From: Bacillota bacterium
GTDB taxonomy: Bacteria > Bacillota > Dehalobacteriia > UBA4068
Assembly (NCBI GenBank): GCA_017531315.1
Contig: JAFXLH010000100.1
Location: forward strand, 1 to 40,422
Length of the DNA: 40,422 bases
Direction: 5' to 3'
Shown: one piece after another, positions 1 to 34,414 of the stretch
Layout of the letters: each line of letters starts with the position of its first letter
Position numbering within the stretch: the first letter of the stretch is position 1
Position numbers and translations under genes: made by a program
The notes under the pieces: generated by a model
Told to the model about the DNA's origin: nothing
The model's database searches: none
Seen by the model: the letters and a program-made list of their open reading frames with translations, nothing else

Positions 1-1302
1 CTGATCATCGACCATCACGAGCCGATGCTGGTGGATAACGGGGCAGGGGAGGTGGTGCAGCAGCTGCCCGCTGCCGACGCCGTCTGCGACCCCAAGCGCA
101 GCGATTGCCGCTACCCATTCAAGCTGTATTGCGCCGGTGGGCTCTGCTACCGCTTTGCCATGGAGCTGTTCTCGCTGCTCGGCTTTAGCGATAGCGAGCT
201 GGAGAACGAGCTGCTGGCCATGGCCACAATCGCCACCGTCTGTGACCTGGTAGAACTGACCGATGATAACCGCTGGCTGGTGCAGCGCGGTCTGCCGCTG
301 ATCGGCAAGGTGCAAAGCCCCGGCCTGCTGGCGATTTTGGAAAACCGAGAGCTGCTAGGCAAAAATATCACCGCCCACCACATCGGCTACCAGATCGGCC
401 CCTGCATCAACGCCTTTGGCCGTCTGGAAGATGCCAGCATGGCCGTAGAGCTGCTGCTTACCGATGACCCGCGCCGCGCCTATTCGCTTTCCGAAGAGAT
501 GGCACGGCTGAACAATCAGCGCAAATCGCTGACCGAACAGGGCGCGATACTGGCCTTTAGCCAGATCTTGGAAGAAAATCTGGATCAGGATGATGTGCTC
601 GTGGTCTATGAGCCGCTGATCCACGAAAGCGTTGCCGGTATCATCGCCGGCCGCATCAAGGAGCGCTACTATAAGCCGAGCATCGTCATTGCCGGCGAAA
701 AAGATGTGGTTCATGGCTCCTGCCGTTCCATCGAAGGGTACAATATCTTTGCCGGTCTGTCTGCCTGCGCTGACTTGCTGGAAGCATTTGGCGGGCATCC
801 GCTGGCAGCCGGCTTAACGGTAGATAAACATAAAATCGCCGACGTCCGCCGCCGCCTCAACGCCGATTACCGGCAGCAAGCGCCCGATATCGAGCAGCTG
901 ATCCGTATCGACAAACAGCTGCCGCTGGCCACCGTAAATCTGGCTTTGGCCGAGCAGCTGCAGCAGTTTGAACCGTTTGGCAAGGGCAACCCTCCGATCA
1001 ACTTTGCCGAAAAGAACGTCTGCATCAGCAAGATCGTGCAGATGGGCAGCAGCAAAAAGGCGATGCGCTGGAGCTGCCGCGGCGCTACGCTCAGTAAGAC
1101 GGTCGAAGCAGTCTGCTTCGAATCCCGCGATAAGCTGGATAAGCTGCTGAGCAGCCGCTACGGTGAAGGCATTTTCGATCTGCTGCTGCAAAATGCGGCA
1201 GAAGTATATCTGGACCTGATTTACAATGTCAACATCAATGAATTCAACGGGCGTCGTTCTGCGCAGGTGCAAATCGTCGATTACCGCCTGTCCGCCCAGT
1301 AG
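1..1302 (+). CDS. recJ: Single-stranded-DNA-specific exonuclease RecJ, C-terminal ~430 aa (5' end lies outside the window)
   Basis: The frame is open from nt 1, and the window opens on LIIDHHEP (DHH motif). A GGHPLAAG DHHA1-type motif follows. Stop codon at 1300-1302. Confidence 0.85.
   Translation: MIIDHHEPMLVDNGAGEVVQQLPAADAVCDPKRSDCRYPFKLYCAGGLCYRFAMELFSLLGFSDSELENELLAMATIATVCDLVELTDDNRWLVQRGLPLIGKVQSPGLLAILENRELLGKNITAHHIGYQIGPCINAFGRLEDASMAVELLLTDDPRRAYSLSEEMARLNNQRKSLTEQGAILAFSQILEENLDQDDVLVVYEPLIHESVAGIIAGRIKERYYKPSIVIAGEKDVVHGSCRSIEGYNIFAGLSACADLLEAFGGHPLAAGLTVDKHKIADVRRRLNADYRQQAPDIEQLIRIDKQLPLATVNLALAEQLQQFEPFGKGNPPINFAEKNVCISKIVQMGSSKKAMRWSCRGATLSKTVEAVCFESRDKLDKLLSSRYGEGIFDLLLQNAAEVYLDLIYNVNINEFNGRRSAQVQIVDYRLSAQ
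40..51 (+). repeat. Polar motif copy GGGGCAGGGGAG (left of dif, reads toward dif)
   Basis: Exact 12-mer inside recJ (codons ggg gca ggg gag). Confidence 0.9.
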
Positions 1303-1311
1303 GAGTAGCTT

Positions 1312-2640
1312 ATGTTATATCATATCGAAACTTTTGGCTGCCAAATGAACGAAAATGATTCGCCGATCATTGGCGATCTACTGCATTCGCTCGGCCATCA
1401 GCCGGCAGGAGAGATATCCAAAGCGGATATCATCGTCATCAACACCTGCTGTGTGCGAGAGACCGCCGAATCCCGCGCGCTTGGTTTTATCGGCAGCCTA
1501 AAGCACTACAAAGAGTTGAACCCCGGCATCTGCATCGCTGTGTGTGGCTGCATGGCGCAAAAGAGCGATACCGCGGAGGTGCTGCGCAAAAAGTACCGCC
1601 ATGTGGGCGTAGTATGCGGCACTTTTGCCATGGCGCAGCTGCCGTATTACATTGAGCAGTACTTAAGCGATGGCCAGCGCATTTTTGACGTGGAAGAGCG
1701 CTATGACCGCGAAGATATTCAGCGCGATAAGCACTTAAGTGAAAGCGATAATAACTACAAAGCCCAGGTAAACATTAATTATGGCTGCAACAATTTCTGC
1801 TCCTATTGCATCGTGCCGTATGTACGCGGGCGCGAACGCAGCCGCAAGCCGCAGGTGATTTGCGATGAGATTCGTGCGCTGGTGGCGCATGGCTGCCGCG
1901 AGATACAGCTGCTGGGGCAGAATGTCAACTCCTATGGCCACGATCTGGAGGGCAACTGGGACTTTGCGCGGTTGCTGGAAGAGGTTTCCGCCATTGAAGG
2001 GCTGGATCGCATCCGCTTCATGACCTCGCATCCGCGCGACTTCAGCCATCATCTTATCGATACCATTGCCAAGCTGCCCAATGTCTGCCGCCAGTTCCAT
2101 CTGCCGGTTCAGGCCGGCTGCAATCGAATTTTGCAGGAGATGAACAGGGGATATACCAAGGAGTATTATCGCGAGATCCTGGCACATCTGCGCGAAAATT
2201 TCCCGGATGCTACCGTGACTACCGACCTGATCGTCGGTTTCCCGGGAGAAACTGATGAAGACTTCGCAGAAACGCTGGAATTCATTGCCGAATGCCGCTT
2301 TGATGCTGCGTATACTTTCATTTATTCGCGCCGCAGCGGCACTCCGGCCGCGACCATGCCCGATCAGGTTCCGGAAGAAGTGAAGAAACAGCGCCTGCAG
2401 CAGTTGATGGATATACAGAATCCGATCAGCCTGGCGCAGAATGAAAAGTTGGTAGGGAAGACCTTGGTGGTAATGACCGAGGGACCCAGCCGCACCAATG
2501 CGGAAGTTTGGTCGTCCCGCAGCGAGGGCGGCAAAATCGTGCTGTTCCCGGCGGTTGACGGCCTGCAGCCCGGCATGCTTAAAAAAGTCCGCATCGAAAA
2601 AGCACAAACCTGGAATTTGAGCGGCAGCTTGGTAGAATAA
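1312..2640 (+). CDS. miaB: tRNA (N6-isopentenyl-A37) methylthiotransferase MiaB
   Basis: 442 aa with N-terminal FGCQMN motif, radical-SAM CNNFCSYCIVP motif and a C-terminal TRAM-like end. An AGGAG RBS lies 6 nt upstream of the ATG. Confidence 0.93.
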   Translation: MLYHIETFGCQMNENDSPIIGDLLHSLGHQPAGEISKADIIVINTCCVRETAESRALGFIGSLKHYKELNPGICIAVCGCMAQKSDTAEVLRKKYRHVGVVCGTFAMAQLPYYIEQYLSDGQRIFDVEERYDREDIQRDKHLSESDNNYKAQVNINYGCNNFCSYCIVPYVRGRERSRKPQVICDEIRALVAHGCREIQLLGQNVNSYGHDLEGNWDFARLLEEVSAIEGLDRIRFMTSHPRDFSHHLIDTIAKLPNVCRQFHLPVQAGCNRILQEMNRGYTKEYYREILAHLRENFPDATVTTDLIVGFPGETDEDFAETLEFIAECRFDAAYTFIYSRRSGTPAATMPDQVPEEVKKQRLQQLMDIQNPISLAQNEKLVGKTLVVMTEGPSRTNAEVWSSRSEGGKIVLFPAVDGLQPGMLKKVRIEKAQTWNLSGSLVE

Positions 2641-2658
2641 AAATACCGACAAAGTCAA

Positions 2659-2691
2659 AGAGCCTGCAGATTTTGCTGGCTCTGATTTTTT
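2659..2691 (+). terminator. Intrinsic terminator after miaB
   Basis: Hairpin AGAGCCtGCA-gattt-TGCtGGCTCT (2659-2683) followed by GATTTTTT. Confidence 0.8.
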
Positions 2692-2758
2692 ACAAAAATT
2701 TTTGGGGGAGAGGTCGCTCGTGTGCATTTCACACGGCACCCTAAAATTTCAACACCTA

Positions 2759-2786
2759 AGTTTACATAATGTACATTATGAGAAGT
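2759..2786. other. dif: Xer recombination site dif (chromosome dimer resolution site; marks the replication terminus)
   Basis: Plus strand reads AGTTTACATAA-TGTACA-TTATGAGAAGT, and the inner 16 bp (2765-2780) is a perfect palindrome. The minus strand reads ACTTCTCATAA TGTACA TTATGTAAACT. As I recall it, B. subtilis dif is ACTTCCTAGAA TATATA TTATGTAAACT: one arm matches 11/11 and the other 8/11. E. coli dif is GGTGCGCATAA TGTATA TTATGTTAAAT. The site lies in a 360-bp gene-free gap, and both gene orientation and a polar motif converge on it. Confidence 0.85.
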
Positions 2787-2790
2787 TGAT

Positions 2791-2829
2791 ATATAAAAGA
2801 CCGGGAAGCGCATCATAAAGCGCTCTCCC
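2791..2829 (-). terminator. Intrinsic terminator-like hairpin (minus strand) immediately right of dif
   Basis: Minus strand reads GGGAGAGCGC-tttatgat-GCGCTTCCC followed by GGTCTTTTATATAT. It would stop transcription coming from the LysM gene before it reaches dif. Confidence 0.5.
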
Positions 2830-2839
2830 AAAACAAAAA

Positions 2840-2870
2840 CCTCAACAGCCGCTTTGGCTGTCAAGGTTTT
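2840..2870 (+). terminator. Intrinsic terminator-like hairpin (plus strand)
   Basis: CCtcaACAGCC-gcttt-GGCTGTcaaGG followed by TTTTATAAT. No obvious gene lies upstream apart from read-through from miaB. Confidence 0.45.
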
Positions 2871-3000
2871 ATAATGTTTCTGCTTCATTTTTGTTTTTTC
2901 GGCACTACTGCTTCATATTGCCCTGTTTTGCCATATGCAAACACCTTAGCACCAAAATTTTCGTGGCTTAAATCGCCTCTTTTTTAGGCGGTTTTTACGC

Positions 3001-3291
3001 CTATTTTTCCGGGATCAGCAATACGTCGCCCACGCGCAGATTTGCACTCTGCAGACCGTTGATCTCTTTAACTTCGTAGATGGCGGCGCGAATATCGCCT
3101 TTATAGTCATAATGTTCGCTTACCAAGGACCACAGCGTATCACCGGAGCTTACGGTAATGGTTTGCATTACGCGAGCCTCGTCATTGCTGGCGCCGGCAA
3201 CGCCGCTGAATGCCATGACTACCAGCAGTACCATCAGGAATAAACCTGCAAAGGCTTTGTAATTGATTCTTCTATTATATTTGGCCAGCAT
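3001..3291 (-). CDS. LysM-domain, single-pass membrane protein; YneA-like SOS-induced cell-division inhibitor candidate
   Basis: 96 aa with an N-terminal TM helix (AFAGLFLMVLLVVMAFSGV) and a C-terminal LysM domain (SSGDTLWSL...VGDVLLIP). It is divergent from lexA and sits behind a consensus promoter carrying LexA boxes. RBS is AGGAGG. Confidence 0.8.
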   Translation of the reverse strand: MLAKYNRRINYKAFAGLFLMVLLVVMAFSGVAGASNDEARVMQTITVSSGDTLWSLVSEHYDYKGDIRAAIYEVKEINGLQSANLRVGDVLLIPEK

Positions 3292-3321: not shown

Positions 3322-3335
3322 CGAACATCTGTTCT
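3322..3335. promoter_or_regulatory. LexA (Cheo/SOS) box 1
   Basis: CGAACATCTGTTCT against the Gram-positive consensus CGAACRNRYGTTYC. It lies just downstream of the -10 of the LysM-gene promoter. Confidence 0.8.
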
Positions 3336-3343
3336 ATGGCTAA

Positions 3344-3372
3344 ATTATATTCGAATATTTGTTCGATGTCAA
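3344..3372 (-). promoter_or_regulatory. Sigma-A promoter of the LysM (YneA-like) gene
   Basis: Minus strand reads TTGACA-17 nt-TATAAT, with both hexamers perfect. The spacer contains LexA box 2. Confidence 0.8.
3352..3365. promoter_or_regulatory. LexA (Cheo/SOS) box 2
   Basis: CGAATATTTGTTCG, inside the spacer of the LysM-gene promoter. Confidence 0.8.
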
Positions 3373-3381
3373 GAGAAAAAT

Positions 3382-3395
3382 AGAACAAATGTTTG
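3382..3395. promoter_or_regulatory. LexA (Cheo/SOS) box 3 (lexA autoregulation)
   Basis: AGAACAAATGTTTG, overlapping the -35 region of the lexA promoter. Confidence 0.7.
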
Positions 3396-3421
3396 CTTTT
3401 TTGTTTTTTATGGTATATAAT
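3393..3421 (+). promoter_or_regulatory. Sigma-A promoter of lexA
   Basis: TTGCTT-17 nt-TATAAT, about 35 nt upstream of the lexA start. Confidence 0.6.
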
Positions 3422-3455: not shown

Positions 3456-4082
3456 ATGGATTATATCGGTTTGACCGAGCAGCAGGCTCGTATTCTTGAT
3501 TTTATTAAGCAGGAACTGCGCGATAAGAAGTTCCCGCCCTCTGTGCGCGAGATTTGTGATGCGGTAGGGCTGCGTTCGCCTTCCACCGTGCATCTGCACC
3601 TGAACACGCTGGAAAGCAAGGGCTATATCCGCCGTCACCCCGGCCAGCAGCGCGCGCTGGAAGTTATCGAAGAGATCGAAAGCACCAGCACCGTTACCAG
3701 CAAAGAAATGGTCGATATCCCGATCATCGGCAAAATCTCCGCCGGCCTGCCGATGCTGGCCGAAGAACATGTGGAAGATTATTTCCCCGTGCTGCTGGGC
3801 TATCTCCATTCCAATAAGCAGCTGTTTATGCTGCGCGTTTCCGGCGAAAGCATGATCGAAGCCGGTATTCATGACGGCGATTTGCTGATCGTGGAAGAAG
3901 CCAGCAGCGCCCGCAACGGTGAAATTATCGTGGCGCTGGTTGATGACGAAGCTACCGTCAAGACCTTCTACCGCGAGCTGAACTGCATCCGCCTGCAGCC
4001 GGAAAACTCCACTATGGCGCCGATCATCGTAGACCGCTGCGATATCATCGGTAAGCCGATCGGCCTGTTCCGCCGCTTCTGA
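3456..4082 (+). CDS. lexA: LexA repressor
   Basis: Starts MDYIGLTEQQARILDFIK at ATG 3456, which is preceded by AAAGGAGG. The ORF-track start at 3393 has no RBS. N-terminal winged helix and C-terminal S24 peptidase domain (VSGESM...). Confidence 0.95.
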   Translation: MDYIGLTEQQARILDFIKQELRDKKFPPSVREICDAVGLRSPSTVHLHLNTLESKGYIRRHPGQQRALEVIEEIESTSTVTSKEMVDIPIIGKISAGLPMLAEEHVEDYFPVLLGYLHSNKQLFMLRVSGESMIEAGIHDGDLLIVEEASSARNGEIIVALVDDEATVKTFYRELNCIRLQPENSTMAPIIVDRCDIIGKPIGLFRRF

Positions 4083-4094
4083 CTCCCCTGCCCC
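4083..4094 (-). repeat. Polar motif copy GGGGCAGGGGAG
   Basis: Exact 12-mer on the minus strand. Intergenic, immediately after the lexA stop. Confidence 0.9.
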
Positions 4095-5481: not shown

Positions 5482-5493
5482 CTCCCCTGCCCC
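5482..5493 (-). repeat. Polar motif copy GGGGCAGGGGAG
   Basis: Exact 12-mer on the minus strand. Intergenic, next to the hfq terminator. Confidence 0.9.
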
Positions 5494-5761: not shown

Positions 5762-6739
5762 TCAATCCTCCCCGAATTGCCGCCCGATCTCTGCCAGTAC
5801 CGCCTCAAGCAGTTGTGCCTGATCCGGATAATGCGTAATATCAAACCACGCGATTTGCGCGTCTCGCTTGAACCAAGTCTGCTGGCGCTTGGCAAAGCGG
5901 CGGGTGTCGCGCTTGATCAGCTCCACCGCCTCATCAAGGCTGATTTGCCCCTCAAGATGCGCCACCAGCTGGCGATAGCCGATGCCCTGCATTGACTGTG
6001 CTTCGGCGCTCACACCGCTTTTCAGCAGGGATTTTACCTCATCCAGCAGCCCCTGCTCCATCATAATATCCACGCGCTTTTCGATGCGGCTGTACAGCAC
6101 CTCGCGCGGGCAGGTCAGGCCGATACAGGCCACCTGATAGCGGCTGTGCTGCGGCTTTTCCGTTAAGTTCCACGATGCGGAAAGCGGCTGCCCGGTGCTG
6201 CGGTATACCTCCAGCGCGCGCAGCAGACGATGTGCATCGTTGCGGTGGATGCGCGCTGCTGCCGGTGGGTCTACCTGCTGCAGCTCGGCATAGAGCGCCT
6301 CGCCGTCATCGGCAGCGTACTCCGCCTTCAGCTGTTCACGCAGCAGCAGATCTGCCGCATTGGTTGCGGCAAAATCGTACTCATCCAGTAATGCTGAAAT
6401 ATAAAGGCCCGTACCGCCGGCCACGATGGGCAAGCGGCCGCGACCGCTGATATCGGCAATAGCGGCATCCGCCAAATCGCGGAAATCCGCCACGGAAAAA
6501 GCCTGCTGCGGCTCTAGAATATCCAGCAGATGATGCGGAACACCCTGCTGCTCTGCCGCGGTCACCTTGGCGGTACCGATATCCATGCGGCGGTAAACCT
6601 GCATCGAATCGCCGGAGATGATCTCACCGTTCAGACGCTGCGCCACCGCGACCGAGAGCGCGGTTTTGCCGCTGGCGGTGGGGCCGAGTATCGTTACCAG
6701 CTTGTGGCTCATAGGCTTTTCCTTTCGATAGTTTATCAT
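5762..6739 (-). CDS. miaA: tRNA dimethylallyltransferase MiaA
   Basis: P-loop GPTASGKT and the DSMQVYR motif. ATG 6739 overlaps the mutL stop (ATGA). An alternative start at 6712 (MSHKLV...) has an AAGGA RBS. Confidence 0.93.
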   Translation of the reverse strand: MINYRKEKPMSHKLVTILGPTASGKTALSVAVAQRLNGEIISGDSMQVYRRMDIGTAKVTAAEQQGVPHHLLDILEPQQAFSVADFRDLADAAIADISGRGRLPIVAGGTGLYISALLDEYDFAATNAADLLLREQLKAEYAADDGEALYAELQQVDPPAAARIHRNDAHRLLRALEVYRSTGQPLSASWNLTEKPQHSRYQVACIGLTCPREVLYSRIEKRVDIMMEQGLLDEVKSLLKSGVSAEAQSMQGIGYRQLVAHLEGQISLDEAVELIKRDTRRFAKRQQTWFKRDAQIAWFDITHYPDQAQLLEAVLAEIGRQFGED

Positions 6740-8752
6740 ATGCCGCCGCGCAAAAAACGTTTCCGGATTTCGGCATTGGTCAGCTTGATGGCCAGCGGGC
6801 GGCCATGGGGGCAGGTGGCGCTGTTGGCGCTGGCATCCAGATCCTGGAACAGCTTCACCATATCCGTCATGTTCAGCAGCTGATTAGCCTTGACGGCGGA
6901 GCGGCAGGCAGCGCGGAACAGCTGGTCGGCACGCAAATGCGTGATATCTACCTGCTCATCACAGACTATATCCAGCAGGCGGCGCAGCAGCATATCCGGC
7001 TCGCTGTATACGTACCACTGCGGCACACCGCGCAGTACAAAGCTGTTATCGCCGAAGAATTCGAGGATGAAGCCAAGGTCGCGCAGATTGTTGATGCCGT
7101 CGATCAGCAGCAGCGTTTCTGCCGGGGTGAAGTCCAGCGCCAGCGGGATAGCCAGCTGCTGCGAGGCATTGCCGCAGGTCTTGGCCTTGGCGGCGATGCG
7201 CTCGTAAAGCACGCGCTCATGAGCGGCATGCTGGTCGATGAAGTAGACGCCGTCATCGGCGGCGGCCACGATATAGGTAAGGTCGATCTGCCCCAGCGGG
7301 CGCAGACGGGAAAAGACCAGCTTATCGCTGTCATCTGCTGCCTGAACCGCAGCTTGCGGCGCCACAGGCGGCGGCGCGAATACCGCGGGGGAGGCTGGTT
7401 CGGCCGGCTTGTCCTGCGGCAGCTGCAGCGGTTGCTCATCCGTCATGATCGGCGACACTACAGCTTTACTGTAACTGCTGCCGGCCAGCGGGCGCACAGC
7501 TTCGGCGGCGGTCATCAGCGGCTGGGGCTTGGGTTTGGCCGGCGGCTGCGGCATGGGCGTGGGCTGGGGTTTAGGTTGGCTCTCCGGCTGGCGGAACAGC
7601 TTTTCGTACAGATCGGGCTGCGTAAACTTGGGGGTGGCAAATTGCTCACGCTGCGGCTTTTGCTGGCTGCTGCGGGCTCTTTTTCGCTCTCGGCGGCAGC
7701 TTTTGGCGCCTTTTCCGGCAGGGTGATATTGAGGCGCGGCGCCAGCAATTCCTTTTTGTGCAGGGCATTGCGGATGGCTTCCGTCAGCTCTTCCTTGATC
7801 TTCTGCGGCTGGCGCAGCTTGATCTCTGTCTTGGCCGGGTGCACATTCACATCCAGCCAGCCGGGGTCGATCTGCAGATAGAGCAGCACCACCGGGAAGC
7901 GATGCTGCGGCAGTAGGGTGCGGTAGGCTTCGTCCACCATCAGCACCAGCTCGCGGCTCTTGACCCAGCGGTTGTTGACGAAAAACAGGTAATGGTTGCG
8001 GTTGGGGCGGGTCAGGTCGGGCAGCGAGATGAGGCCGGTGATATCCACCGTACCGCTGTACTGCACCGGCACCATGAAGTCCATCAGCTCTTTGCCATAC
8101 ACAGACTGCATAGCAGTGCTGTATTCGCCACTGCCGCTATGGAAAAAGAGGCGGCGGCCCTGCTGATAGAGGGAAAACGAAATATGCGGGTGCGAAAGCG
8201 CTTCTTTGGTCACCACATCGCTGATGACGGCCATTTCCCGCGTGGGAGTTTTGAGGAATTTTTTGCGTGCCGGGGCATTGTAGAAGAGGCGGTCGACCAA
8301 AATGGTAGTGCCTTCCGGTGCACCGTAGGGCTGCGGCTGCTCCGGTTTGCCGCCGCGCACTTCCATACGGTAGGCCTCCAGCGCACCGCGCACCTTGGAG
8401 GTGACGGTCATCTCGCTTACAGAAGCGATAGCCGGCAGCGCTTCACCGCGGAAGCCCAAAGTTGCCAGCGAATCGAGGTCGGAAAACTCGCGCAGCTTGC
8501 TGGTGGCATGGCGCTGCATGGCGCATACCATATCGGCAGGCACCATACCGCAGCCGTTATCGCTAACGGAGATCTTTTCACAGTTAGCATCGTGGATGCG
8601 CACTTCGATGCGGGTCGCCCCGGAATCGATGGCGTTTTCCACCAGCTCTTTTACTACGGAAGCAGGGCGTTCTACCACTTCACCGGTGGCGATCTGATTG
8701 GCCGTCAGCGAATCCAGCAGGCGCACTATTCCCTGTTGCGTGTTTTCGCTCA

Positions 8753-8753
<1 letters not shown>
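6736..8753 (-). pseudogene. mutL: DNA mismatch repair protein MutL, reading frame interrupted in the interdomain linker (true frameshift or sequencing error)
   Basis: The N-terminal GHKL ATPase ORF (7515-8753, VKELVENAIDSGAT) and the C-terminal dimerisation/endonuclease ORF (6736-7554, DQHAAHERVLYE at about 7201-7236) are in different frames. The C-terminal frame stays open upstream to at least ~7740. Judged by which frame reads sensibly, the switch lies at about 7625-7665. The start ATG at 8753 overlaps the mutS stop (TAATG). Confidence 0.65.
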
Positions 8754-11350
<2,597 letters not shown>

Positions 11351-12872: not shown

Positions 12873-13288
12873 AACTGCTGGTAAGCGCCTGTCTGCTGGG
12901 CCACAACTGCAAATATAACGGCGGCAACAACGATAATGCCAAAGTGCACCGCTTTTTGGCGGATAAAGACTATATCATCTTCTGCCCGGAATCAGCCTCC
13001 GGTCTCCCCTGCCCGCGTGATCCGGCGGAAATCCAGGGTGAAGCGGTTATCGACCGCAGCGGCAAAGATGTGACGGAATACTTCCACCGCGGCGCGCAAA
13101 TGGCGCTGGAACTGTGCCAAAAGCACGGCATCGATACCGCCCTGCTCAAAGAAAGCAGCCCGTCCTGCGGCTCGCATCTCATCTACGACGGCACTTTCAG
13201 CAAAAAGAAACTGCCCGGCCGGGGCATCACCGCCCGTCTGCTGGCCGCTCACGGCATCCGGCTGCTTTCTGAAGAGGATCTCGACTGA
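12869..13288 (+). CDS. DUF523 protein (TudS-type [4Fe-4S] thiouracil desulfidase family)
   Basis: 139 aa with SACLLGHNCKYNGG, CPE..GLPCPR and SSPSCGS, the three Cys-containing motifs typical of DUF523. Its ATG overlaps the ttcA-like stop (ATGA at 12869-12872). Confidence 0.8.
   Translation: MKLLVSACLLGHNCKYNGGNNDNAKVHRFLADKDYIIFCPESASGLPCPRDPAEIQGEAVIDRSGKDVTEYFHRGAQMALELCQKHGIDTALLKESSPSCGSHLIYDGTFSKKKLPGRGITARLLAAHGIRLLSEEDLD
13004..13015 (-). repeat. Polar motif copy cGGGCAGGGGAG
   Basis: 11/12 match, antisense to the plus-strand DUF523 gene. Confidence 0.9.
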
Positions 13289-18738: not shown

Positions 18739-20700
18739 TCAGCCGATGCGGGCACCGGGGGTCATACCGGGGACTTCCACTACCTGCAGGGTCTCCCCTA
18801 CCAGAGCGGAAAGCAGCATGCCCTGAGATTCGATGCCGCGGATCTTGCGCGGAGCGAGGTTGGCGATGAGCACCAGATGCTTGCCCACCAGTTCTTCCGG
18901 AGCATAGTGCATAGCGATGCCGGAAAGTACGGTGCGCTCTTCCAGACCCATATTGAGGCGGAATTTGAGCAGCTTATCGGCCTTCGGCACTTTTTCGCAT
19001 TCCAGAACTTCGACCACGCGCAGATCGAGCTTGGCGAAGTCTTCGATGCCAATCATATCGGTGCTAAGCGGTTCCAGCTGGCTTTCTTCTTCGGCAGCAG
19101 CCTCTTCAGCAGCAGCGGCGGCATCAATGGCGGCAGCTTCTTCAGCAGCGGCAGCTTCCATGGCAGCGATATCGATGCGCGGGAACAGCGGTTCGCCGCG
19201 GTCGATCTTGGTATCGGCAGGGAAAGAGCCCCAAGTGAGGGATTCCCAAGTGTGCAGGTCGGTGCGGTCGGTGATGCCCAGCTGCTTCCAGACCTTTTCG
19301 GCCAGGGTGGGCATGACCGGGGAGATCATGATGGTGGTGAGACGGACGACTTCTACCATGTTGTAGAGTACGCTGGCCAGTTTGCCCTTTTCGCCGGCCT
19401 TATTCAGCGCCCACGGAGCGGCATCATCAATGTACTTGTTGGCTTTGGCGACCAGCTTCCACAGCTCGGCGATGGCATTGGCCCATTCCATCTTGTCCAT
19501 CAGCTCGGCAAAGCGGGCGGGAGTGGCCTTGGCCAGCTCGATCAGCTCGGCATCAAATTCGGTAGGTTCACCGGGAGCCAGTACGATGCTGCCCTGGAAC
19601 TTATCGATCATACCGGTGGAACGGGAGAGCAGATTGCCGTAGTCATTAGCCAGGTCTACGTTGATACGCAGAGCGAGGTTATGCTCGTTGTAGTTGCAAT
19701 CCTGACCGTAGGGCATTTCGCGCATCAGGAAGTAACGGATGGCGTCAACGCCGTAGCGTTCGCAGAGGACGAAGGGATTGACTACATTGCCCTTGGATTT
19801 GCTCATCTTGTCATTGTCGATGAGTACCCAGCCGTGACCCAGAACGCACTTGGGCAGCGGCAGTTCGGCAGCCATCAGCATGATCGGCCAGATGATGGTA
19901 TGGAAGCGGATGATGTCTTTACCGACGAGATGTACATCGGCCGGCCAGAACTTGTTGTAGAGGCTGCCGTCGCCGGTATTGGCCAGCGCGGAGATGTAGT
20001 TGGAAAGAGCATCGAACCAGACGTATACGACATGCTTGCCGTCAAAGGGAACCGGGATGCCCCAGTTGAAGGTAGTGCGGGAGATGCACAGATCTTCCAG
20101 GCCCTGCTTGACGAAGTTGACCATTTCGTTGCGGCGGCTTTCCGGACGGATGAAGTCAGGGTTGGCTTCGATGAATTCCAGCCAGCGATCCGCATATTTG
20201 CTCATTTTGAAGAAGTAACTTTCTTCCTGCATACGTTCTACGGGGCGGCCGCAGTCCGGGCAGATATGCTCTTCGCCTACCTGACGTTCGGTGAAGAAAG
20301 CTTCGTCGGGAGTGCAGTACCAGCCTTCGTAGGTGGACTTATAGATATCGCCCTTATCGTAGATCTTCTGGAACAGATCCTGAACATATTTGATATGACG
20401 GTCATCGGTAGTACGGATGAAATCATCATAGTCGATGTGCAGCAGTTCCCACAGCTTTTTGAAGTTTTCGCTGATCTTATCGACGAATTCCTGCGGTTCT
20501 ACACCGGCGGCAACGGCACGGCGCTGGATCTTCTGGCCGTGTTCATCGGTACCGGTAAGGAAGTAGGCATCATAACCGCGCATCTTTTTATATCTGGTCA
20601 TGGTATCGGCCGCAACAGTGGTATATGCGTGGCCGATATGCGGATTATCACTGGGATAGTAAATGGGGGTAGTAATGTAAAACGTAGGCTTCTCAGTCAT
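18739..20700 (-). CDS. metG: Methionine--tRNA ligase with C-terminal tRNA-binding (Trbp111/EMAP-like) domain
   Basis: PHIGHAYT (HIGH) and KMSKSKGN motifs and a CPDCG zinc knuckle. An Ala/Glu-rich linker precedes the C-terminal OB domain. RBS is AAGGAGG. Confidence 0.97.
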   Translation of the reverse strand: MTEKPTFYITTPIYYPSDNPHIGHAYTTVAADTMTRYKKMRGYDAYFLTGTDEHGQKIQRRAVAAGVEPQEFVDKISENFKKLWELLHIDYDDFIRTTDDRHIKYVQDLFQKIYDKGDIYKSTYEGWYCTPDEAFFTERQVGEEHICPDCGRPVERMQEESYFFKMSKYADRWLEFIEANPDFIRPESRRNEMVNFVKQGLEDLCISRTTFNWGIPVPFDGKHVVYVWFDALSNYISALANTGDGSLYNKFWPADVHLVGKDIIRFHTIIWPIMLMAAELPLPKCVLGHGWVLIDNDKMSKSKGNVVNPFVLCERYGVDAIRYFLMREMPYGQDCNYNEHNLALRINVDLANDYGNLLSRSTGMIDKFQGSIVLAPGEPTEFDAELIELAKATPARFAELMDKMEWANAIAELWKLVAKANKYIDDAAPWALNKAGEKGKLASVLYNMVEVVRLTTIMISPVMPTLAEKVWKQLGITDRTDLHTWESLTWGSFPADTKIDRGEPLFPRIDIAAMEAAAAEEAAAIDAAAAAEEAAAEEESQLEPLSTDMIGIEDFAKLDLRVVEVLECEKVPKADKLLKFRLNMGLEERTVLSGIAMHYAPEELVGKHLVLIANLAPRKIRGIESQGMLLSALVGETLQVVEVPGMTPGARIG

Positions 20701-20750
20701 GGGAAAAGGCCTCCTTAAATGATGAAAAATCGGGGTTACTCCATCTAATA

Positions 20751-20779
20751 ATGATAACAGTTAACTGCGGTTTAGTCAA
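20751..20779 (-). promoter_or_regulatory. Sigma-A promoter of metG (short leader, no T-box)
   Basis: Minus strand reads TTGACT-17 nt-TATCAT, about 50 nt upstream of the metG ATG. Confidence 0.6.
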
Positions 20780-20802
20780 GCAAAAGGCGCATCAGTGACA
20801 AC

Positions 20803-20830
20803 AAAAAGGGCGACCGTTTTCCGGCCGCCC
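20803..20830 (-). terminator. Intrinsic terminator after ileS
   Basis: Minus strand reads GGGCGGCCG-gaaaa-CGGTCGCCC followed by TTTTTGTTG. Confidence 0.8.
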
Positions 20831-20846
20831 TTGAGGCTAAATATGC

Positions 20847-23615
20847 TTATTTGTTCATGACGCTGCAGCAGCGGTCGCACAGTTCGGGAGTTTCGGCATT
20901 TTTGCCGACGCTTTCGCTGTGGATCCAGCAGCGGCTGCATTTTTCGCCATCGGCGGTATGTACTTCGGCGCGGAATTCGGCTTCCGCATCATGCAGTACT
21001 ACCTGCGATACGATGAAGATCTTGGCCAGCTCATCCTTGACGGAAGCCAGAGCGGCGGCAGAAGCTTCATCCGGCCAGATCTCGACTTTGGCATCGAGGG
21101 AGTGGCCGATAACATTGGCGGCTCTCACCTTCTCCAGCTCCTTGCTGACCAGTTCGCGGCAAGCGAGAATGGTTTCCCAGCGGGCCATCAGCTCATCATC
21201 GCAGATAGCAGCATCAACTTCCGGCATATCCAGCAGCTGAGCGGATACGGGGGCATCGGCAGCCTTGGGCATATAGGAGTAGATCTCTTCGGTGGTGAAA
21301 GAGAGGATCGGCGCCAGCATGCGGACCAGAGCATCGATGGTCTTGTACAGTACGGTCTGCATGGAGCGGCGGCGCTGGCAATCCGGATCATCGGCATAGA
21401 TGTCCTTGATCACGTCGAGGTAGAAAGAGCTCATGTCGACGACGCAGAACTTGTGGATGCTGTGATATACTACGTGGAATTCGTAGTTATCGTAGGCTTC
21501 TCTGACCTTGGCGATCAGATTCTGCAGCTGGATCATCGCCCAGCGGTCGATCTCCGGCATATCCTTGAAGTCGACCATATGCTTATCGAGGTCGAAATCG
21601 TAGAGGTTGCTCAGCATATAGCGGGCAGTGTTGCGGATCTTGCGGTAAGCTTCGGAAACCTGCTTCAAGATAGAGGGAGCGCAGGCGATATCGGAACGGT
21701 AGTCGGTGGAAGATACCCACAGACGCAGCACGTCGGCGCCCATCTGCTCGACGACCTTCAGCGGGTCGGTGGTGTTGCCCAGAGACTTGGACTGCTTGAT
21801 GCCCTTATCGTCCACGATGAAGCCGTGAGTGAGAACAGCCTTATAGGGAGCTACGCCACGGTTGGCGATGGAGATGCACAGGGAGGAGTTGAACCAGCCA
21901 CGATGCTGGTCGCTGCCTTCCAGATAGAGGTCTGCCGGCCAGCGCTGACCGTCCCAATGCTCGAGTACGGCAAAGTGGCTGCTGCCGGAATCGAACCATA
22001 CGTCCATGGTGTCGGTCTCTTTGCGGAAGTGAGTGCCGCCGCATTTGGGGCAAGTGAAGCCGGTAGGCAGCAGGTCTTCTTCGCCGAGGCCAAACCAGGT
22101 GTTACTGCCGATCAGGCCGTCTTTGCCTTCGCGGTACAGCTTCTGCAGGTGGGCGATGGTTTCGTCGTTGATCACAGTTTCACCGCAATCTTCGCAGTAG
22201 AAGATCGGGATCGGTACACCCCAGGTACGCTGGCGGGAAATGCACCAGTCGCCGCGGTCACGGATCATGTTGTAGATGCGGTCATGGCCCCAGGACGGGA
22301 TCCACTGCACGCCGTCGATGGCATCCAGCGCGGTCTGGCGGAAGCTGTCGATGGAAGCAAACCACTGTTCGGTGGCGCGGAAGAGGATGGGAGTATGGCA
22401 GCGCCAGCAATGCGGATACTGGTGACCAAACATTTTCAGCTGGATCAGCGCGCCGCATTCTTCGAGCATCTTAGCAACGACCTTGCCGCCGGCGGTGGTA
22501 TCCATGCCTTCGAGGCCGGGAGCTTCTTCGGTGAAGCGGCCCTTGCCGTCGACCGGGCACAGTACCGGCAGATCGTAGTTTTTGCCCACGATAAAGTCGT
22601 CGGCGCCGTGGCCGGGAGCGGTATGTACGCAGCCGGTACCGGCATCGAGAGTGACATGGCTGCCGAGGATGATCAGGGAGTCGCGATCATACAGCGGGTG
22701 TTTGCAGGTGATGTATTCCAGTTCTCTGCCGCCAAATTCGGCTAAAACGGTGTAAGGCATATCCTTGCGGCCGGTATCTGCCAGGAAGGCTGCTACCAGG
22801 TCTTTGGCCATGACGAGCTTGGTGCCTTCCAGATCGATCATCACATAGGTGAAGTCGGGGTTGATGCAGATGGCGACGTTGGCCGGGATAGTCCACGGGG
22901 TGGTGGTCCAGATGACAAAGTAGGCATCGGTAGGCAGCTTATCTTTGCCGTCGTTTACCTGGAATTTAACATAAATGGAAGCAGACTTGTGATCCTGATA
23001 TTCGATTTCGGCTTCGGCGAGCGCAGTCTCGCAGCTGGGGCACCAGTAAACCGGCTTCAAGCCCTTATAGATGCAGCCCTTCTTGGCCATTTCGCCAAAA
23101 GCGGCGATCTGCACGGCTTCGTATTCCGGCTTCAGGGTGATATAGGGGTTATCCCATTCGCCAAATACGCCCAGACGCTTGAAGGATTCACGCTGCTGGC
23201 CTACATACTTTTCGGCAAAGCCGCGGCATTTTTCGCGGAATTCCACCTTGCTGACCTTATCGCGGTTGAGACCCAGGTCTTTGATGGCGCGCTGCTCGAT
23301 GGGCAGGCCGTGGGTATCCCAGCCGGGAACATACGGAGCGTCAAAGCCGGCCATGGATTTATATTTGACGATGATGTCTTTGAGGATCTTATTCAGAGCA
23401 TGGCCAATGTGGATATCGCCGTTGGCATAGGGCGGGCCATCGTGCAGGATAAAGGTAGGACGACCGGCGTTCTTTTCGCGTACCAGGCGGTAAATATCCA
23501 TTTCCTGCCACTTTTTCAGCATTTCCGGTTCTTTCTGGGGCAGATTGCCGCGCATCGGGAACTCGGTCTGCGGCAGATTCAAAGTTTTGCCATAATCTTT
23601 CTTTTCTTCAGTCAT
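20847..23615 (-). CDS. ileS: Isoleucine--tRNA ligase
   Basis: 922 aa with [16 protein letters not shown] (HIGH), KQSKSLGN (KMSKS) and C-terminal zinc-binding Cys pairs. Confidence 0.97.
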
Positions 23616-23673: not shown

Positions 23674-23895
23674 AAAAAGAGCTTTCGCCAGATAGGGACG
23701 AAAGCTCCGCGGTACCACCCTGATTGCCGACAGATGCCGGCCACTCATGCGCATAACGGACGCCGCCGTGCGGAGCTCAAAACTTCGCGCCGCAGACTCA
23801 GAGGCGATGGGATATATGCGGCCATTGCCCGGCTTTCACCATCCCGGGCTCGCTGGGAACAGCTGATGCATATTCCGCCCTCATCACAGTCGATG
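23674..23895 (-). promoter_or_regulatory. T-box riboswitch leader of ileS (Ile specifier)
   Basis: On the minus strand: a GTGATGA/CTGAG K-turn-like base at stem I, then AGCGAG...GGTGAAAG distal motifs. ATC triplets sit on the 3' side of the predicted specifier loop (23811-23813 and 23806-23808, the latter followed by a purine). The T-box sequence AGGGTGGTACCGCGG lies at 23707-23721. A terminator GAGCTTTCG-N11-CGAAAGCTC plus TTTTTAT lies at 23674-23707 and overlaps the T-box. Confidence 0.88.
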
Positions 23896-23914
23896 ACATA
23901 TTAAACAGATAATA

Positions 23915-27677: not shown

Positions 27678-29882
27678 TTACTGAGCTTTGTGCATATTCA
27701 TCAGCACGGTAGCACCGGAAGCACGGTTGGCCAGGCCGGAGGGGATGAACAGGGTGTCGGTCATACCCTGCATATAGCCGGCATCAACGCAATATCTTAC
27801 GGCGTTCAGCGCCCAGGGAGAAATGGCGTACATATCGGTGAAAGTCAGTTCTTCCATAGTGGCGGGAGAACCGTCATAGCGATAGATGAATGCAGCCATC
27901 TGTTCACGGGTCAGCAGACCGAGCGGATCGAAGGTGATAGCATCGGCATCGGCTACGGTGCCGGCGGTGATACCCTTTTCAACTGCCCAGGCAGCAGCCT
28001 TTTCGTACCAGATACCGGCTTCAACGTCGGTAAAGGCCACTTCGGCAGTAACTTCCGGAGAACCGGCCAGGCGATAGAGCATGGTAACGAAGGTAGCGCG
28101 GTTCATGTTGGCACGCGGAGCAAAGTTGCCTTCGCCAACGCCGCCCATCAGAGCATTATTGTAAACATAGTTGGCAGCACCGGCATACCAGTCACCGGCA
28201 GCTACGTCGGCAAAAGCGGTAACGATATCGATACGGCCCTGGCCATAGGGATTGGCATAATCAGCGCCTACTACGCCACCCAGTTCTTCTACGATGTAAT
28301 TGATCAGAACCTGGTTGTCGATGAGGACGCAGTCTTTGATCATGGTGACATTATTGGTGCCGAACATGGTGTAGCCGTCACCGGCGCTCTTCAGCATGTA
28401 GTTGTGGGAAGCGAGAGTATAGGTAGCAGCAGCATCGATCGGTTCGCCGCCGATCATAACGTCCTTAACGCGGCGCTCGCCGGCTACTTCAACGAAAGAG
28501 TCTTTGTCGTCGATAACAACGGTGGAGGCAACGGTGGTGTCGATGGTGCAGGTCAGACCGGCAACATGCAGGAAGCCGCCGCTTTCGCTGATGCCGACAT
28601 TACGGTAGCCCATTTCCAGCGCATCGAGGATCTGCTGGCCGGTAACTTCTACCAGGCAGGCTTCGTTGCCGAAGGGATGTACGGCAATAATCTGTTCATA
28701 GGTGATATCGCCGGCGGGGATATTGGCACGGACGCCGCCGCCGTTGACGAAGGCTACATCAGCTTCCAGCAGGGTGAGGTAAGCATCGGCGCACAGGTCG
28801 CCCAGGTTGGTTTCACGGCTGCGGACCATACGCTTGCCGGTGTCGGGGTCATTGATGGTCAGGTCTACGGCAGTTTTGGCTACTACGGTTTTCAGCAGCG
28901 CATCGTTTTCGGCCAGAACATCGGCTACGGCCTTGGCAACTTCTGCATCCGGAGTGACATTTTCGCTGACCAGTTCGGTGGTGATGCCATCTTTGGTGAT
29001 GGTCATGCAGCCGACATTGGCCAGCTTGGTGCCGGTGGAGGTGAGCAGAACTTCTTCACCCTTGGCATTTTTGACCTTATCGCCAACGATAGTGCTGTGA
29101 GAGTGACCATCGATGAAAGCATCGATGCCGGTGGTATTGGCGATGACTTCGGTGGACATCCAGGGGCTGGATTCAACGTCTACGCCCAGGTGGCCCACGG
29201 CGATGACATAATCGGCGCCATCGGCCAGAGCAGCATCAACGGCTTCCTGCACGGCAGCGTACAGGTCTTTACCGTTATTGCCTTCAGCAAAGCTGTAAAT
29301 ATATTCGCCTTCCGCATTCTGGAAGTAAGTAGGAGTGGACTTGGTGAAGCTTTCCGGGGTGGCAATGCCGACATAGGCAACTACGGTTTCACCGTAAGTG
29401 ACCAGCTTGTAGGCATCGAATACCGGTTCGCCGGTAGTGAGGTCGATGAAGTTGCAGCAAACAACATCAGCCTCGAGTGCATTGAGGTTTTCTTTGGCTT
29501 TATCCATGCCATAGTCGAATTCATGGTTGCCGATAGTGGTGAGGTCATAACCGGCTGCATTCATCAGCTCGATCAGATATTCACCGTTGGAAAGGGTGCC
29601 CAGAACGCCGCCCTGAGAGAAGTCACCGGCATCGACCAGGGTAACATAGCCTTCACCGTACAGAGCTTCCATACCGGATTTCAGGCCGGCTACACCGGCA
29701 TAACCAAGGGCTTCATCAACGGCGCAGTGAGCATCGTTGGTATAGAGGATAACGATAGTGCCGTTAGCGGCAGAGGGAGCCGGGGCGATCAAAAGCGGCT
29801 CATCGGCCATGGCTACGCTGCCCAGGCTAAGAGCCAGCAGCAGAACCATCATCAGTGACAACAATTTACCAAGTCTTTTCAT
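27678..29882 (-). CDS. Secreted bifunctional metallophosphatase/5'-nucleotidase with three C-terminal SLH (S-layer homology) domains
   Basis: Signal peptide MKRLGKLLSLMMVLLLALSLGSVAMA|DE. NDAHC and GNHEFDYG metallophosphatase motifs and a 5'-nucleotidase C-terminal domain. Three FxDV...WY...TR-type SLH repeats. ATG 29882 lies 8 nt after AAAGGAG. Confidence 0.85.
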   Translation of the reverse strand: MKRLGKLLSLMMVLLLALSLGSVAMADEPLLIAPAPSAANGTIVILYTNDAHCAVDEALGYAGVAGLKSGMEALYGEGYVTLVDAGDFSQGGVLGTLSNGEYLIELMNAAGYDLTTIGNHEFDYGMDKAKENLNALEADVVCCNFIDLTTGEPVFDAYKLVTYGETVVAYVGIATPESFTKSTPTYFQNAEGEYIYSFAEGNNGKDLYAAVQEAVDAALADGADYVIAVGHLGVDVESSPWMSTEVIANTTGIDAFIDGHSHSTIVGDKVKNAKGEEVLLTSTGTKLANVGCMTITKDGITTELVSENVTPDAEVAKAVADVLAENDALLKTVVAKTAVDLTINDPDTGKRMVRSRETNLGDLCADAYLTLLEADVAFVNGGGVRANIPAGDITYEQIIAVHPFGNEACLVEVTGQQILDALEMGYRNVGISESGGFLHVAGLTCTIDTTVASTVVIDDKDSFVEVAGERRVKDVMIGGEPIDAAATYTLASHNYMLKSAGDGYTMFGTNNVTMIKDCVLIDNQVLINYIVEELGGVVGADYANPYGQGRIDIVTAFADVAAGDWYAGAANYVYNNALMGGVGEGNFAPRANMNRATFVTMLYRLAGSPEVTAEVAFTDVEAGIWYEKAAAWAVEKGITAGTVADADAITFDPLGLLTREQMAAFIYRYDGSPATMEELTFTDMYAISPWALNAVRYCVDAGYMQGMTDTLFIPSGLANRASGATVLMNMHKAQ

Positions 29883-29966
29883 AGTCATGCTCCTTTATTA
29901 ATATTTTGCGGAGTTTCCTCCTAAGCCCATTCTACCATATATTTACAGATATAAAAGCAAAAAAAC

Positions 29967-29999: not shown

Positions 30000-30602
30000 T
30001 TATTTATTATTCAGCCACCAATCATAGAGTTTGCTGCGCAGCAGCAGCTCATCCCCTGCCCCGCCGGTAGATGCCGCCACGGCCTGTTCTTCCGCCACCA
30101 CATCCACAAAGCAGAGCGGCGGAAACAGTACGCACCACCAGTTATGCCCGGCGCCGCTGCCCAGCACGATGCGCAGCGCCTCGTATTCTCCCTGCGGCAG
30201 CACGGTACCATCGTAGCTGATAGCGGGAAACTGTGCCACCTCCAGCCGGGCGCTGGCGGTATAGGCGGCGCGTCCCGCGATATACTCGTTGCACAGCTGC
30301 TCCAGCTGCGGAATCATGGCGTGCACCTGCTGTTTGGCGGCAGCTTTGTCAGGCGCGGCAGCCAGCGTTTCCGCCAGCTCTGCCACCACCAGATCGCGCA
30401 CCTCCAGCTTCAGCTGCTGATCGTAGGCAGAGTCGCTATCGGCCAGTATATGCAGGCGCAGCGGGTAACTGTCGCCGGTATAGTCTTCGTAATAGACGGT
30501 ATCTGCCGCGGCGAAATAATGCATCCAGCCCGCCGCGCCCAGCAGCAGCGCCAAACCAGCCAGCAGATATCGCTTCGTCTTATGCTTTGTAATATGCTTC
30601 AT
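30000..30602 (-). CDS. spoIIR: Stage II sporulation protein R (SpoIIR)
   Basis: 200 aa with a signal/TM segment, LRLHILADSDS and NWWCVLFPPLCF signature motifs. Confidence 0.92.
   Translation of the reverse strand: MKHITKHKTKRYLLAGLALLLGAAGWMHYFAAADTVYYEDYTGDSYPLRLHILADSDSAYDQQLKLEVRDLVVAELAETLAAAPDKAAAKQQVHAMIPQLEQLCNEYIAGRAAYTASARLEVAQFPAISYDGTVLPQGEYEALRIVLGSGAGHNWWCVLFPPLCFVDVVAEEQAVAASTGGAGDELLLRSKLYDWWLNNK
30051..30062 (-). repeat. Polar motif copy GGGGCAGGGGAt
   Basis: 11/12 match, inside spoIIR. Confidence 0.9.
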
Positions 30603-33352: not shown

Positions 33353-34414
33353 TTATTTATTCTGCGCCCATCTCCCTTTCCCTGCCTTGCCTCGGCCAAC
33401 TTTTCTACATCCAGCGGCAGGCATACCGATGCGGCAGGCCAGCAGCAACCCCAGCAAAGAGAGCAGCGCCACCGCATTACGCACGCCGTCCGTATCCGGG
33501 TTGGCCAGCAGCACGTAGCCAAGGTAGCTGCTGCCATACAAGGCGGCGCAGACCGCGGCCAGCAGCTTATCGTCCGTCTTTCGCCGCAGCGCCGCCGCCA
33601 GCCAGTCCGTCAGCTGACGGCACAGCAGCACCACATATACCAGCAGCACCGTCAATACCGCCAGCGCCCCCAGCAGCTCCAGGCGCGATACGGCAGCATC
33701 CCACTGCATCATTCTTAAGGCACGCACAGTAGGATAGCCCTCCAGCCGCAGCGTATCGCCAAAAAGCAGCGCATTGCGGCCGATGCAGATAATACAGTAG
33801 CCGATGCCCAGCCCCATGCCCCGGCGCAGAGCCTTGCTTTTCCCCTGCCCCGCTTCGCTAAACAGGCCCAGCGTCAGCGGCAGCATGCCGTAGATCAGCG
33901 CCGCGTAATAGCCAGCGGTGATCAGCACATCCGCCCAATCCGCACCCGCCAGCGGCAGCAGGCGGCGCGGGTGATAATCGGGCATCAGCAGCAGCGTGTC
34001 ACCGATAACCGCCACCACAAAGACGAACACCACGATAGAAGCCGTGCGCTCGATAGCCCGCCGCCCCAGCCGCGCCGAAAAGAAGGTGAAACAGGCAAAG
34101 GTGAGCGCATAGACCAGCACCGGCGTATTACGCATCTCAAAGGCCGACCAGAAGGATAGCATCAGCAGCACATAATAGGCGCTGAGCAGCAGCAAAACAG
34201 CAGCAAGCAGCATCTTTAGCCGCCGCTGACCGCTATCGCTCAGGCAACTGTACAGCCACACCATCAACGGCGCGGGCAATACGGCGATAATGATGGAGAG
34301 CCACACATGATGCCCCAGATGGCTGCCGATGGCATTGACCGGCAGCAGGCTGCCCAGCAGTACCACAGCTACCAGCGCCGTGCTTTGTACAGTTTTGGCA
34401 TTGATTTCTCTCAT
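33353..34414 (-). CDS. Spore germination protein, GerAB/GerKB-type (APC-superfamily permease-like B subunit)
   Basis: About 353 aa with about 10 TM helices. Located in an operon with A and C subunits. ATG 34414 is preceded by GGGGAG. Confidence 0.8.
   Translation of the reverse strand: MREINAKTVQSTALVAVVLLGSLLPVNAIGSHLGHHVWLSIIIAVLPAPLMVWLYSCLSDSGQRRLKMLLAAVLLLLSAYYVLLMLSFWSAFEMRNTPVLVYALTFACFTFFSARLGRRAIERTASIVVFVFVVAVIGDTLLLMPDYHPRRLLPLAGADWADVLITAGYYAALIYGMLPLTLGLFSEAGQGKSKALRRGMGLGIGYCIICIGRNALLFGDTLRLEGYPTVRALRMMQWDAAVSRLELLGALAVLTVLLVYVVLLCRQLTDWLAAALRRKTDDKLLAAVCAALYGSSYLGYVLLANPDTDGVRNAVALLSLLGLLLACRIGMPAAGCRKVGRGKAGKGRWAQNK
33840..33851 (-). repeat. Polar motif copy GGGGCAGGGGAa
   Basis: 11/12 match, inside the gerAB-type gene, in a different reading frame from the other coding copies. 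Confidence 0.9.

Follow-up and report, generated by a model that had tools for sequence, protein, structure and literature searches.

The 28 bp at positions 2759–2786 of the window, as we refer to the whole 40,422-bp stretch of DNA analysed here, constitute in our assessment the chromosomal XerC/XerD-type dif site of an uncultured, spore-forming gut bacterium of the Bacillota, a reading to which we assign a probability of about 0.9. The earlier note had called this segment a canonical Xer dif site, and that description held up: the match exceeds chance, and the site is single in the contig, intergenic, invariant among strains and conserved in a relative. The dif sites of XerCD type are almost universal and strongly conserved and can be recognised from their sequence; profile-based predictions of such sites, available since 2011, cover hundreds of genomes. 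The present site is a classic representative of this type in its Bacillota form, another example of a well-known kind. The window is one entire contig of a fragmented MAG. For this MAG, the site is a landmark that allows the contig to be assigned to the terminus region once the assembly is scaffolded or closed, and it also sets the direction in which the contig is replicated. The locus also provides one data point that a KOPS octamer, GGGCAGGG, may operate in a lineage of the Bacillota. Beyond the landmark and the KOPS point, the analysis confirms existing knowledge.

Sequence and layout of the site

On the plus strand, positions 2759–2786 read AGTTTACATAATGTACATTATGAGAAGT, that is, AGTTTACATAA-TGTACA-TTATGAGAAGT. 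The site was assigned to the minus strand, on which it reads ACTTCTCATAA-TGTACA-TTATGTAAACT. In this orientation, and in plus-strand coordinates, the XerC/CodV arm ACTTCTCATAA occupies positions 2776–2786, the central region TGTACA positions 2770–2775 and the XerD/RipX arm TTATGTAAACT positions 2759–2769. The 11-6-11 layout of dif, which had been proposed for this segment, is borne out by the sequence: the two arms form a perfect inverted repeat over their inner 5 bases but not over the outer 6, such that the site is an imperfect dyad.

We compared the site with the seed sequences of two experimentally defined dif sites, ACTTCCTAGAA-TATATA-TTATGTAAACT of B. subtilis and GGTGCGCATAA-TGTATA-TTATGTTAAAT of E. 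coli (Kono et al. 2011, PMC3025954). Relative to the CodV/RipX site of B. subtilis, which likewise comprises 28 bp in an 11-6-11 arrangement, the XerD/RipX arm was identical (11/11), the XerC/CodV arm matched at 8 of 11 positions, with the same initial ACTTC, and the centre matched at 4 of 6. The published sequences (PMC3025954) thereby substantiate the earlier claim of one arm identical to that of B. subtilis and 8 of 11 matches in the other. Both sites also have a palindromic, AT-rich 6-bp centre, and both hosts are spore-forming Bacillota. By contrast, the centre is TGTACA here and TATATA in B. subtilis, and the inner part of the XerC arm, TAGAA in B. subtilis, is here the CATAA found in E. 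coli and most phyla. Relative to the dif site of the E. coli XerC/XerD system, with its FtsK and KOPS, 21 of 28 positions were identical. The inner palindrome CATAATGTA.ATTATG is a feature of both, and CATAA-TGTA.A-TTATG is common to the two sites, in agreement with the previous description of the inner part as nearly identical to E. coli dif. The outer parts of the arms differ from those of E. coli (ACTTCT here versus GGTGCG, and TAAACT versus TTAAAT), as does the host phylum.

Predicted dif sites of other Bacillota, from Clostridiales, Bacilli, Limnochordia, Erysipelotrichaceae and Lacticaseibacillus, carry ACTTCGCATAAT.TATATTATGTAAACT. The site described here departs from this commonest Bacillota form in having T for G at position 6 of the XerC arm and TGTACA as its centre. 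The difSL/XerS system of streptococci and the difH/XerH system of Helicobacter and Campylobacter similarly resolve chromosome dimers near the terminus, but their sequences and geometry are different, and the site in the window is of the XerCD type. More specifically, difSL is 31 bp long and has an 11-bp centre, with the single recombinase gene, xerS, adjoining (PMC5357621). A difSL/XerS module was ruled out for this locus, where the site has a 6-bp centre and is flanked by miaB and a LysM gene, with no recombinase gene adjacent.

The match was evaluated against chance by using both B. subtilis arms as a pattern, with the centre specified as N and up to 3 mismatches allowed, and by applying the same pattern to 100 dinucleotide-preserving shuffles. 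The pattern matched once in the window, at 2759–2786, and in 0 of the 100 shuffles. When the bare core CATAA-N6-TTATG was considered with one mismatch, ~1.2 occurrences were expected by chance in window-sized DNA. The bare core alone is therefore not significant, and the signal is carried by the full arms. The same expectation lends itself to a reading in which there is no recombination site, the 16-bp perfect palindrome CATAATGTACATTATG being instead the operator of a dimeric regulator or a chance occurrence in an AT-rich spacer; the nearby SOS-regulated yneA-like/lexA pair also speaks for an operator. We consider this reading highly improbable, since both full 11-bp arms match, as they do in none of the shuffles, and the LexA boxes are elsewhere, at 3322–3396. 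The assignment as dif is further specified by its uniqueness: in the whole 40,422-bp window, neither a second copy of the 28-mer (≤3 mismatches) nor another dif-like site (≤6 arm mismatches) was found.

The site is located within the 360 bp that separate the stop of miaB (2640) from the stop of the LysM gene (3001). As had been reported, this gap is free of genes; the sole ORF within it (2655–2888, minus strand, 77 aa) covers a stretch that is unconserved in L132, the relative described below. Downstream of miaB, a hairpin followed by a T-run on the plus strand (2658–2691; AGAGCC..GGCTCT then GATTTTTT) is likely an intrinsic terminator. This hairpin is present in the fold of the gap and was not listed by a simple terminator scanner. 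On the other side of dif, two tandem hairpins lie 3' of the yneA-like gene on the minus strand, one at 2836–2870 with a T-tail and one at 2803–2829; the terminator scan identified a terminator-like site of 15 pairs at 2870–2836. Both of these hairpins occur in the minimum-energy fold of the gap, and the z of −5.6 for this fold relative to shuffles is due to the terminators and not to the dif site. The predicted miaB terminator would likely stop rightward transcription before dif, and the predicted hairpins at 2803–2870 would stop leftward transcription before dif. The site is thus bracketed by inward-facing, converging predicted terminator hairpins. Its position 3' of both neighbouring genes, beyond their terminators and not in a promoter, is a further argument against an operator. 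An Rfam search of the window detected no RNA family in the gap; the sole match was a T-box leader (RF00230, 95 bits) upstream of ileS, at 23691–23896 on the minus strand.

Conservation of the site and its occurrence on other replicons

Ten metagenome or MAG contigs that are ~98% identical to the window were recovered via the LysM protein. These near-identical strains are from several JGI and ENA metagenomes, including ruminant and goat ones, and from MAG GCA_017440705.1, and the contigs recovered via the TatD and LysM proteins are all ≤6.2 kb. The identical 28-mer is present in seven of the seven strain contigs that span the position, and it is single in each. In one metagenome contig, L220 (region 1136–2030), identity to the window is 99.9% across dif and the last third of miaB at its 3' end; the contig then switches at a conserved motif to a far more distant miaB allele. 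L220 is most likely an assembly chimera, and we rejected its divergence as a biological signal.

The closest relative in the metagenome collection is represented by contig L132, whose MiaB is 57% identical to that of the window. The gene order in L132 is likewise miaB–dif–LysM–lexA–ynbB, and the orientation of dif is unchanged. Its dif site, ACTTCCGATAA-TATATA-TTATGTAAACT, is about 105–130 bp past miaB. When the gap of the window was aligned with that of L132, only a 28-bp island was kept (24/28), and the remainder was at random-level identity. This alignment reveals a clear phylogenetic footprint, the island having been retained while the DNA around it in the gap diverged. In a more distant relative, L184, ~7 kb separate dif from miaB, and gene orientations converge 2.5 kb from dif.

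To gauge the breadth of conservation, we used the 22-base core plus XerD arm, CATAATNTANATTATGTAAACT, as a query. At least 120 genome contigs, distributed over many phyla, contained this sequence, each as a single site; matches on both strands at two Paenibacillus loci are due to the site being perfectly palindromic there. The matches listed, among which the source species does not appear, include Bacillota, Desulfobacterota, Gemmatimonadota, Ignavibacteriota/Melioribacteraceae, Bacteroidota, Gammaproteobacteria and others. A non-coding 22-mer common to so many phyla is not expected unless it is dif. An operator or a chance palindrome also fits poorly with a 22-mer that occurs once per genome, in unrelated phyla and at KOPS convergence points (at least 120 loci; see below). 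In several of the Bacillota matches, the other arm is ACTTCGCATAA, which is 10/11 identical to the XerC arm of the present site.

Sequences resembling dif are not exclusive to chromosome termini: plasmids of Enterococcus and Bacillus also carry 28-mers of this type, as do a few phage records. Those with 87–90% identity, as measured over 31–32 bases, are in unannotated DNA of many Enterococcus faecium megaplasmids and of Bacillus plasmids, and others are near the ends of some Enterococcus phage records. Five IMG/VR predicted viral contigs (L001–L005) carry the 22-base dif core plus XerD arm, which in L004 is 11 bases from the contig start. These five contigs may represent Xer-exploiting elements or prophage predictions that end at the host dif. 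Given such sites in plasmid and phage records, sequence alone is no proof of a chromosomal terminus.

The plasmid-borne 28-mers are compatible with a reading in which the site resolves multimers of a plasmid or megaplasmid, in the manner of cer/psi-like or pdif-like sites. For the present contig, this has a very low probability. The contig carries the core genes ileS, metG, tyrS, mutS, mutL, miaA, hfq and lexA in addition to minC, sepF, nrdR, spoIIR, a sigma factor gene and a gerA operon, and no replication, partition or transfer genes were found on it. Moreover, the order of the flanking genes is conserved in L132. The presence of ileS, metG, tyrS, mutSL, lexA and sporulation genes on the contig instead places the dif site on the chromosome.

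Polarity around the site and the replication terminus

Several features of the contig make it quite probable that the site lies in the replication-terminus region. The genes to the left of dif are all on the plus strand (recJ and miaB, plus a third gene that is seen on strain contig L212), and 28 of the 32 genes to its right are on the minus strand. These data confirm the convergence of genes on dif that the earlier note had described, with a left flank that is short: only 2.7 kb in the window, or 4.1 kb with the additional 1.4 kb of L212. The convergent orientation is the pattern of a terminus and not of an origin.

The site had also been described as the point at which an unnamed polar motif flips. 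This motif is most likely GGGCAGGG, a KOPS-type octamer that forms the core of the E. coli KOPS consensus GGGNAGGG (PMC3384302). The window contains eight copies of GGGCAGGG, or one per 5 kb, versus 1.9 expected (~4-fold), and 0 of 100 shuffles reached eight. All eight copies point toward dif and none away, which substantiates the flip. The single copy to the left is on the plus strand at 41–48. The seven to the right are on the minus strand at 4086–4093 (intergenic), 5485–5492 (between hfq and ynbB), 8945–8952 (inside mutS), 13007–13014 (antisense to a plus-strand gene), 30054–30061 (inside spoIIR), 33843–33850 and 37580–37587. Since two copies are intergenic and one is antisense, the polarity is not an effect of codon usage.

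The loci that carry the 22-mer (at least 120) served as a positive control. Around these sites, GGGCAGGG was oriented toward the site in 61 instances and away in 4, and the corresponding numbers for GGGNAGGG were 133 and 13. This polarity indicates that the 22-mer marks KOPS convergence points. In L132, GGGCAGGG was oriented toward dif by 3 to 0 and GGGNAGGG by 6 to 0. Among more distant MiaB relatives (80 contigs), GGGCAGGG was rare, at ~1 per 22 kb, and not strongly polar.

The octamer in the window is the one found in E. coli KOPS, and it converges on the site as in that species. By contrast, the SRS of B. subtilis, GAGAAGGG, was absent from the window. The polar motif of L. lactis is GAAGAAG, which to the right of dif was weakly skewed in the right direction (13 to 5). 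The most skewed 6- to 8-mers on this side were of the CAGCAGC type; they reflect coding-strand bias and were set aside as uninformative. For Firmicutes, the literature reports no common KOPS motif (PMC3384302). It is conceivable, and we propose it tentatively as somewhat less probable than its converse, that this lineage steers an FtsK/SpoIIIE-family translocase by the proteobacterial-type KOPS GGGCAGGG and not by an SRS-like GAGAAGGG or GAAGAAG. With eight sites on one contig, the possible role of GGGCAGGG as KOPS is a lead and not a finding.

In surveys, dif is located 0–1.39% of genome length from the GC-skew shift point, with outliers at <3% (PMC3025954). We calculated skew within the window for the sequence as a whole, gene by gene and for third codon positions. 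On the plus strand, G−C was +28 across the 2.7 kb to the left of dif and about −580 across the 37.6 kb to its right. The cumulative G−C curve contained local reversals, and its maximum was at 23459, not at dif. The coding-strand third-position skew of metG and ileS (18739–23615) and of the SLH 5'-nucleotidase gene (27678–29888) was −0.31 to −0.48, opposite in sign to that of neighbouring sporulation and germination genes (+0.15 to +0.26). The local curve is scrambled because the codon bias of metG, ileS and the 5'-nucleotidase gene opposes that of their neighbours. In-window GC skew was therefore rejected as evidence either way, gene-specific codon effects being dominant.

Overall, the claim that the window contains the chromosome terminus was supported only indirectly: the convergence of genes and octamers favours it, but the in-window skew peaks elsewhere. 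A dif site between converging terminators, in a 360-bp untranscribed gap and at the point of polarity reversal, is consistent with the replication-terminus region. This reading is limited by the short left flank, with its three genes and one octamer, and by the fragmented nature of the MAG.

In a different reading, the Xer site is genuine but off the terminus, as an ectopic or secondary dif-like site, such as the junction of an IMEX (an integrated Xer-exploiting mobile element) or a relic of one, with the working dif elsewhere in the genome. The GC skew, which has no peak at the site, and the dif-like sites in viral contigs and phage records could be taken in its favour. The same is true of three independent strain contigs (L213, L218 and L221) that, coming from the lexA side, end at 2812–2826, 26–40 bp from dif, and that could reflect structural variation among strains. 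However, these ends are in or beside the inverted repeat 2803–2829, a plausible place for an assembler to break, such that an assembly artefact is more likely than an IMEX in some strains. Sites used by IMEX usually have one degenerate arm (PMC5357621). Here, both arms are fully canonical, no second dif-like site occurs in the 40 kb at 6 arm mismatches, and the same 40 kb contain no integrase, phage or transfer gene, the flanks consisting of housekeeping genes only. For the contig, these results agree with the previous suggestion that the dif site is unoccupied. An off-terminus location is also at odds with the gene orientation and with the eight GGGCAGGG copies, which converge exactly at the site, and with the position of the site, which is kept in the distant relative L132. 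We judge such a location to be improbable and retain the reading of a chromosomal dif at the terminus.

By analogy to the E. coli and B. subtilis systems (PMC5357621), a mechanism may be proposed. An XerC-type recombinase, homologous to CodV, would bind the ACTTCTCATAA arm, and an XerD-type recombinase, homologous to RipX, would bind the TTATGTAAACT arm. In a dimer of sister chromosomes, as produced by homologous recombination, the two copies of dif would synapse near the closing septum. The recombinases would then exchange strand pairs at either border of the 6-bp TGTACA spacer and thereby yield two monomers. A translocase of the FtsK/SpoIIIE/SftA type would be steered to dif by polar octamers, probably GGGCAGGG. 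In E. coli, the translocase activates recombination directly, whereas in B. subtilis it is reported to position the DNA only, neither SpoIIIE nor SftA being known to activate CodV/RipX directly (PMC5357621). Activation by FtsK may therefore not apply here. The enzymes themselves are assumed, as no xerC/xerD (codV/ripX) or ftsK/spoIIIE gene was found within the 40-kb window.

Gene neighbourhood and the adjoining SOS module

The gene identities to the left of dif were confirmed by Pfam and NCBIfam domains, as was their rightward direction, both of which had been given previously. The 3' part of recJ (25–1302, plus strand; Pfam RecJ_OB and DHHA1, partial TIGR00644) runs off the left end of the contig, and gene calls on strain contig L212 contain the full 592-aa form. 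The tRNA methylthiotransferase gene miaB (1312–2640, plus strand) scored 486 bits against TIGR01574, for which the cut-off is 355. It is the last gene to the left of dif and is transcribed toward it. The first gene to the right, also transcribed toward dif, encodes a yneA-like LysM protein of 96 aa (3001–3291, minus strand). This protein contains a Pfam LysM domain and scored 54.4 bits against NF010723 (YneA), just below the cut-off of 60. It is likely an SOS cell-division inhibitor. The next gene is lexA (3456–4082, plus strand; TIGR00498, 227 bits), the 208-aa form of which is supported by gene calls on strain contigs and exactly matches NCBI MBR6824170.1.

Further to the right are, in order, ynbB-like, hfq, miaA, mutL, mutS and minC genes, all on the minus strand. 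Two plus-strand genes, encoding a PP-loop ATPase and a 2-thiouracil desulfurase, follow minC. A run of minus-strand genes then begins with a phosphoesterase gene, psd, ksgA, a yabE-like gene, tatD, metG, ileS, sepF and ylmE. It continues with an HlyD-like gene, nrdR, the SLH 5'-nucleotidase gene, spoIIR and the sigma factor gene, and ends with a phosphate transporter gene, a hisA-like gene, the gerA operon and one gene of unknown identity. The right end of the window contains tyrS, on the plus strand, and one more minus-strand gene. The G+C content of the host is ~55%.

The yneA-like gene and lexA are divergently transcribed. Three LexA boxes of the Cheo type (CGAACATCTGTTCT, CGAATATTTGTTCG and AGAACAAATGTTTG) lie in the intervening spacer, at 3322–3335, 3351–3364 and 3383–3396. 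The spacer also contains a perfect TTGACA-17-TATAAT promoter that faces the LysM gene. L132 has a like layout of the yneA-like gene and lexA, with at least one LexA box (CGAACATTAGTTCT). This module, ~215 bp from dif, resembles the SOS division-inhibitor module of B. subtilis. In the latter species, the corresponding genes are tens of kb away from dif, whereas they adjoin it here. Speculatively, the linkage of dif to the yneA-like/lexA SOS pair could be functional rather than inherited gene order. The B. subtilis map, in which we take mutS-mutL, miaA-hfq, ynbB and lexA-yneA to approach dif in like order, would instead make the arrangement an inherited one and not a functional link.

Finally, mutL (6736–8783, minus strand) consists of two overlapping ORFs in different frames. 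The ORF at 7515–8783 corresponds to the N-terminal ATPase, and the dimerisation domain of the C-terminus is encoded by that at 6736–7554. Across 7400–7637, strain contig L213 and the window align without indels. The frameshift in the proline-rich linker of mutL is thus either real in this lineage or located just upstream.
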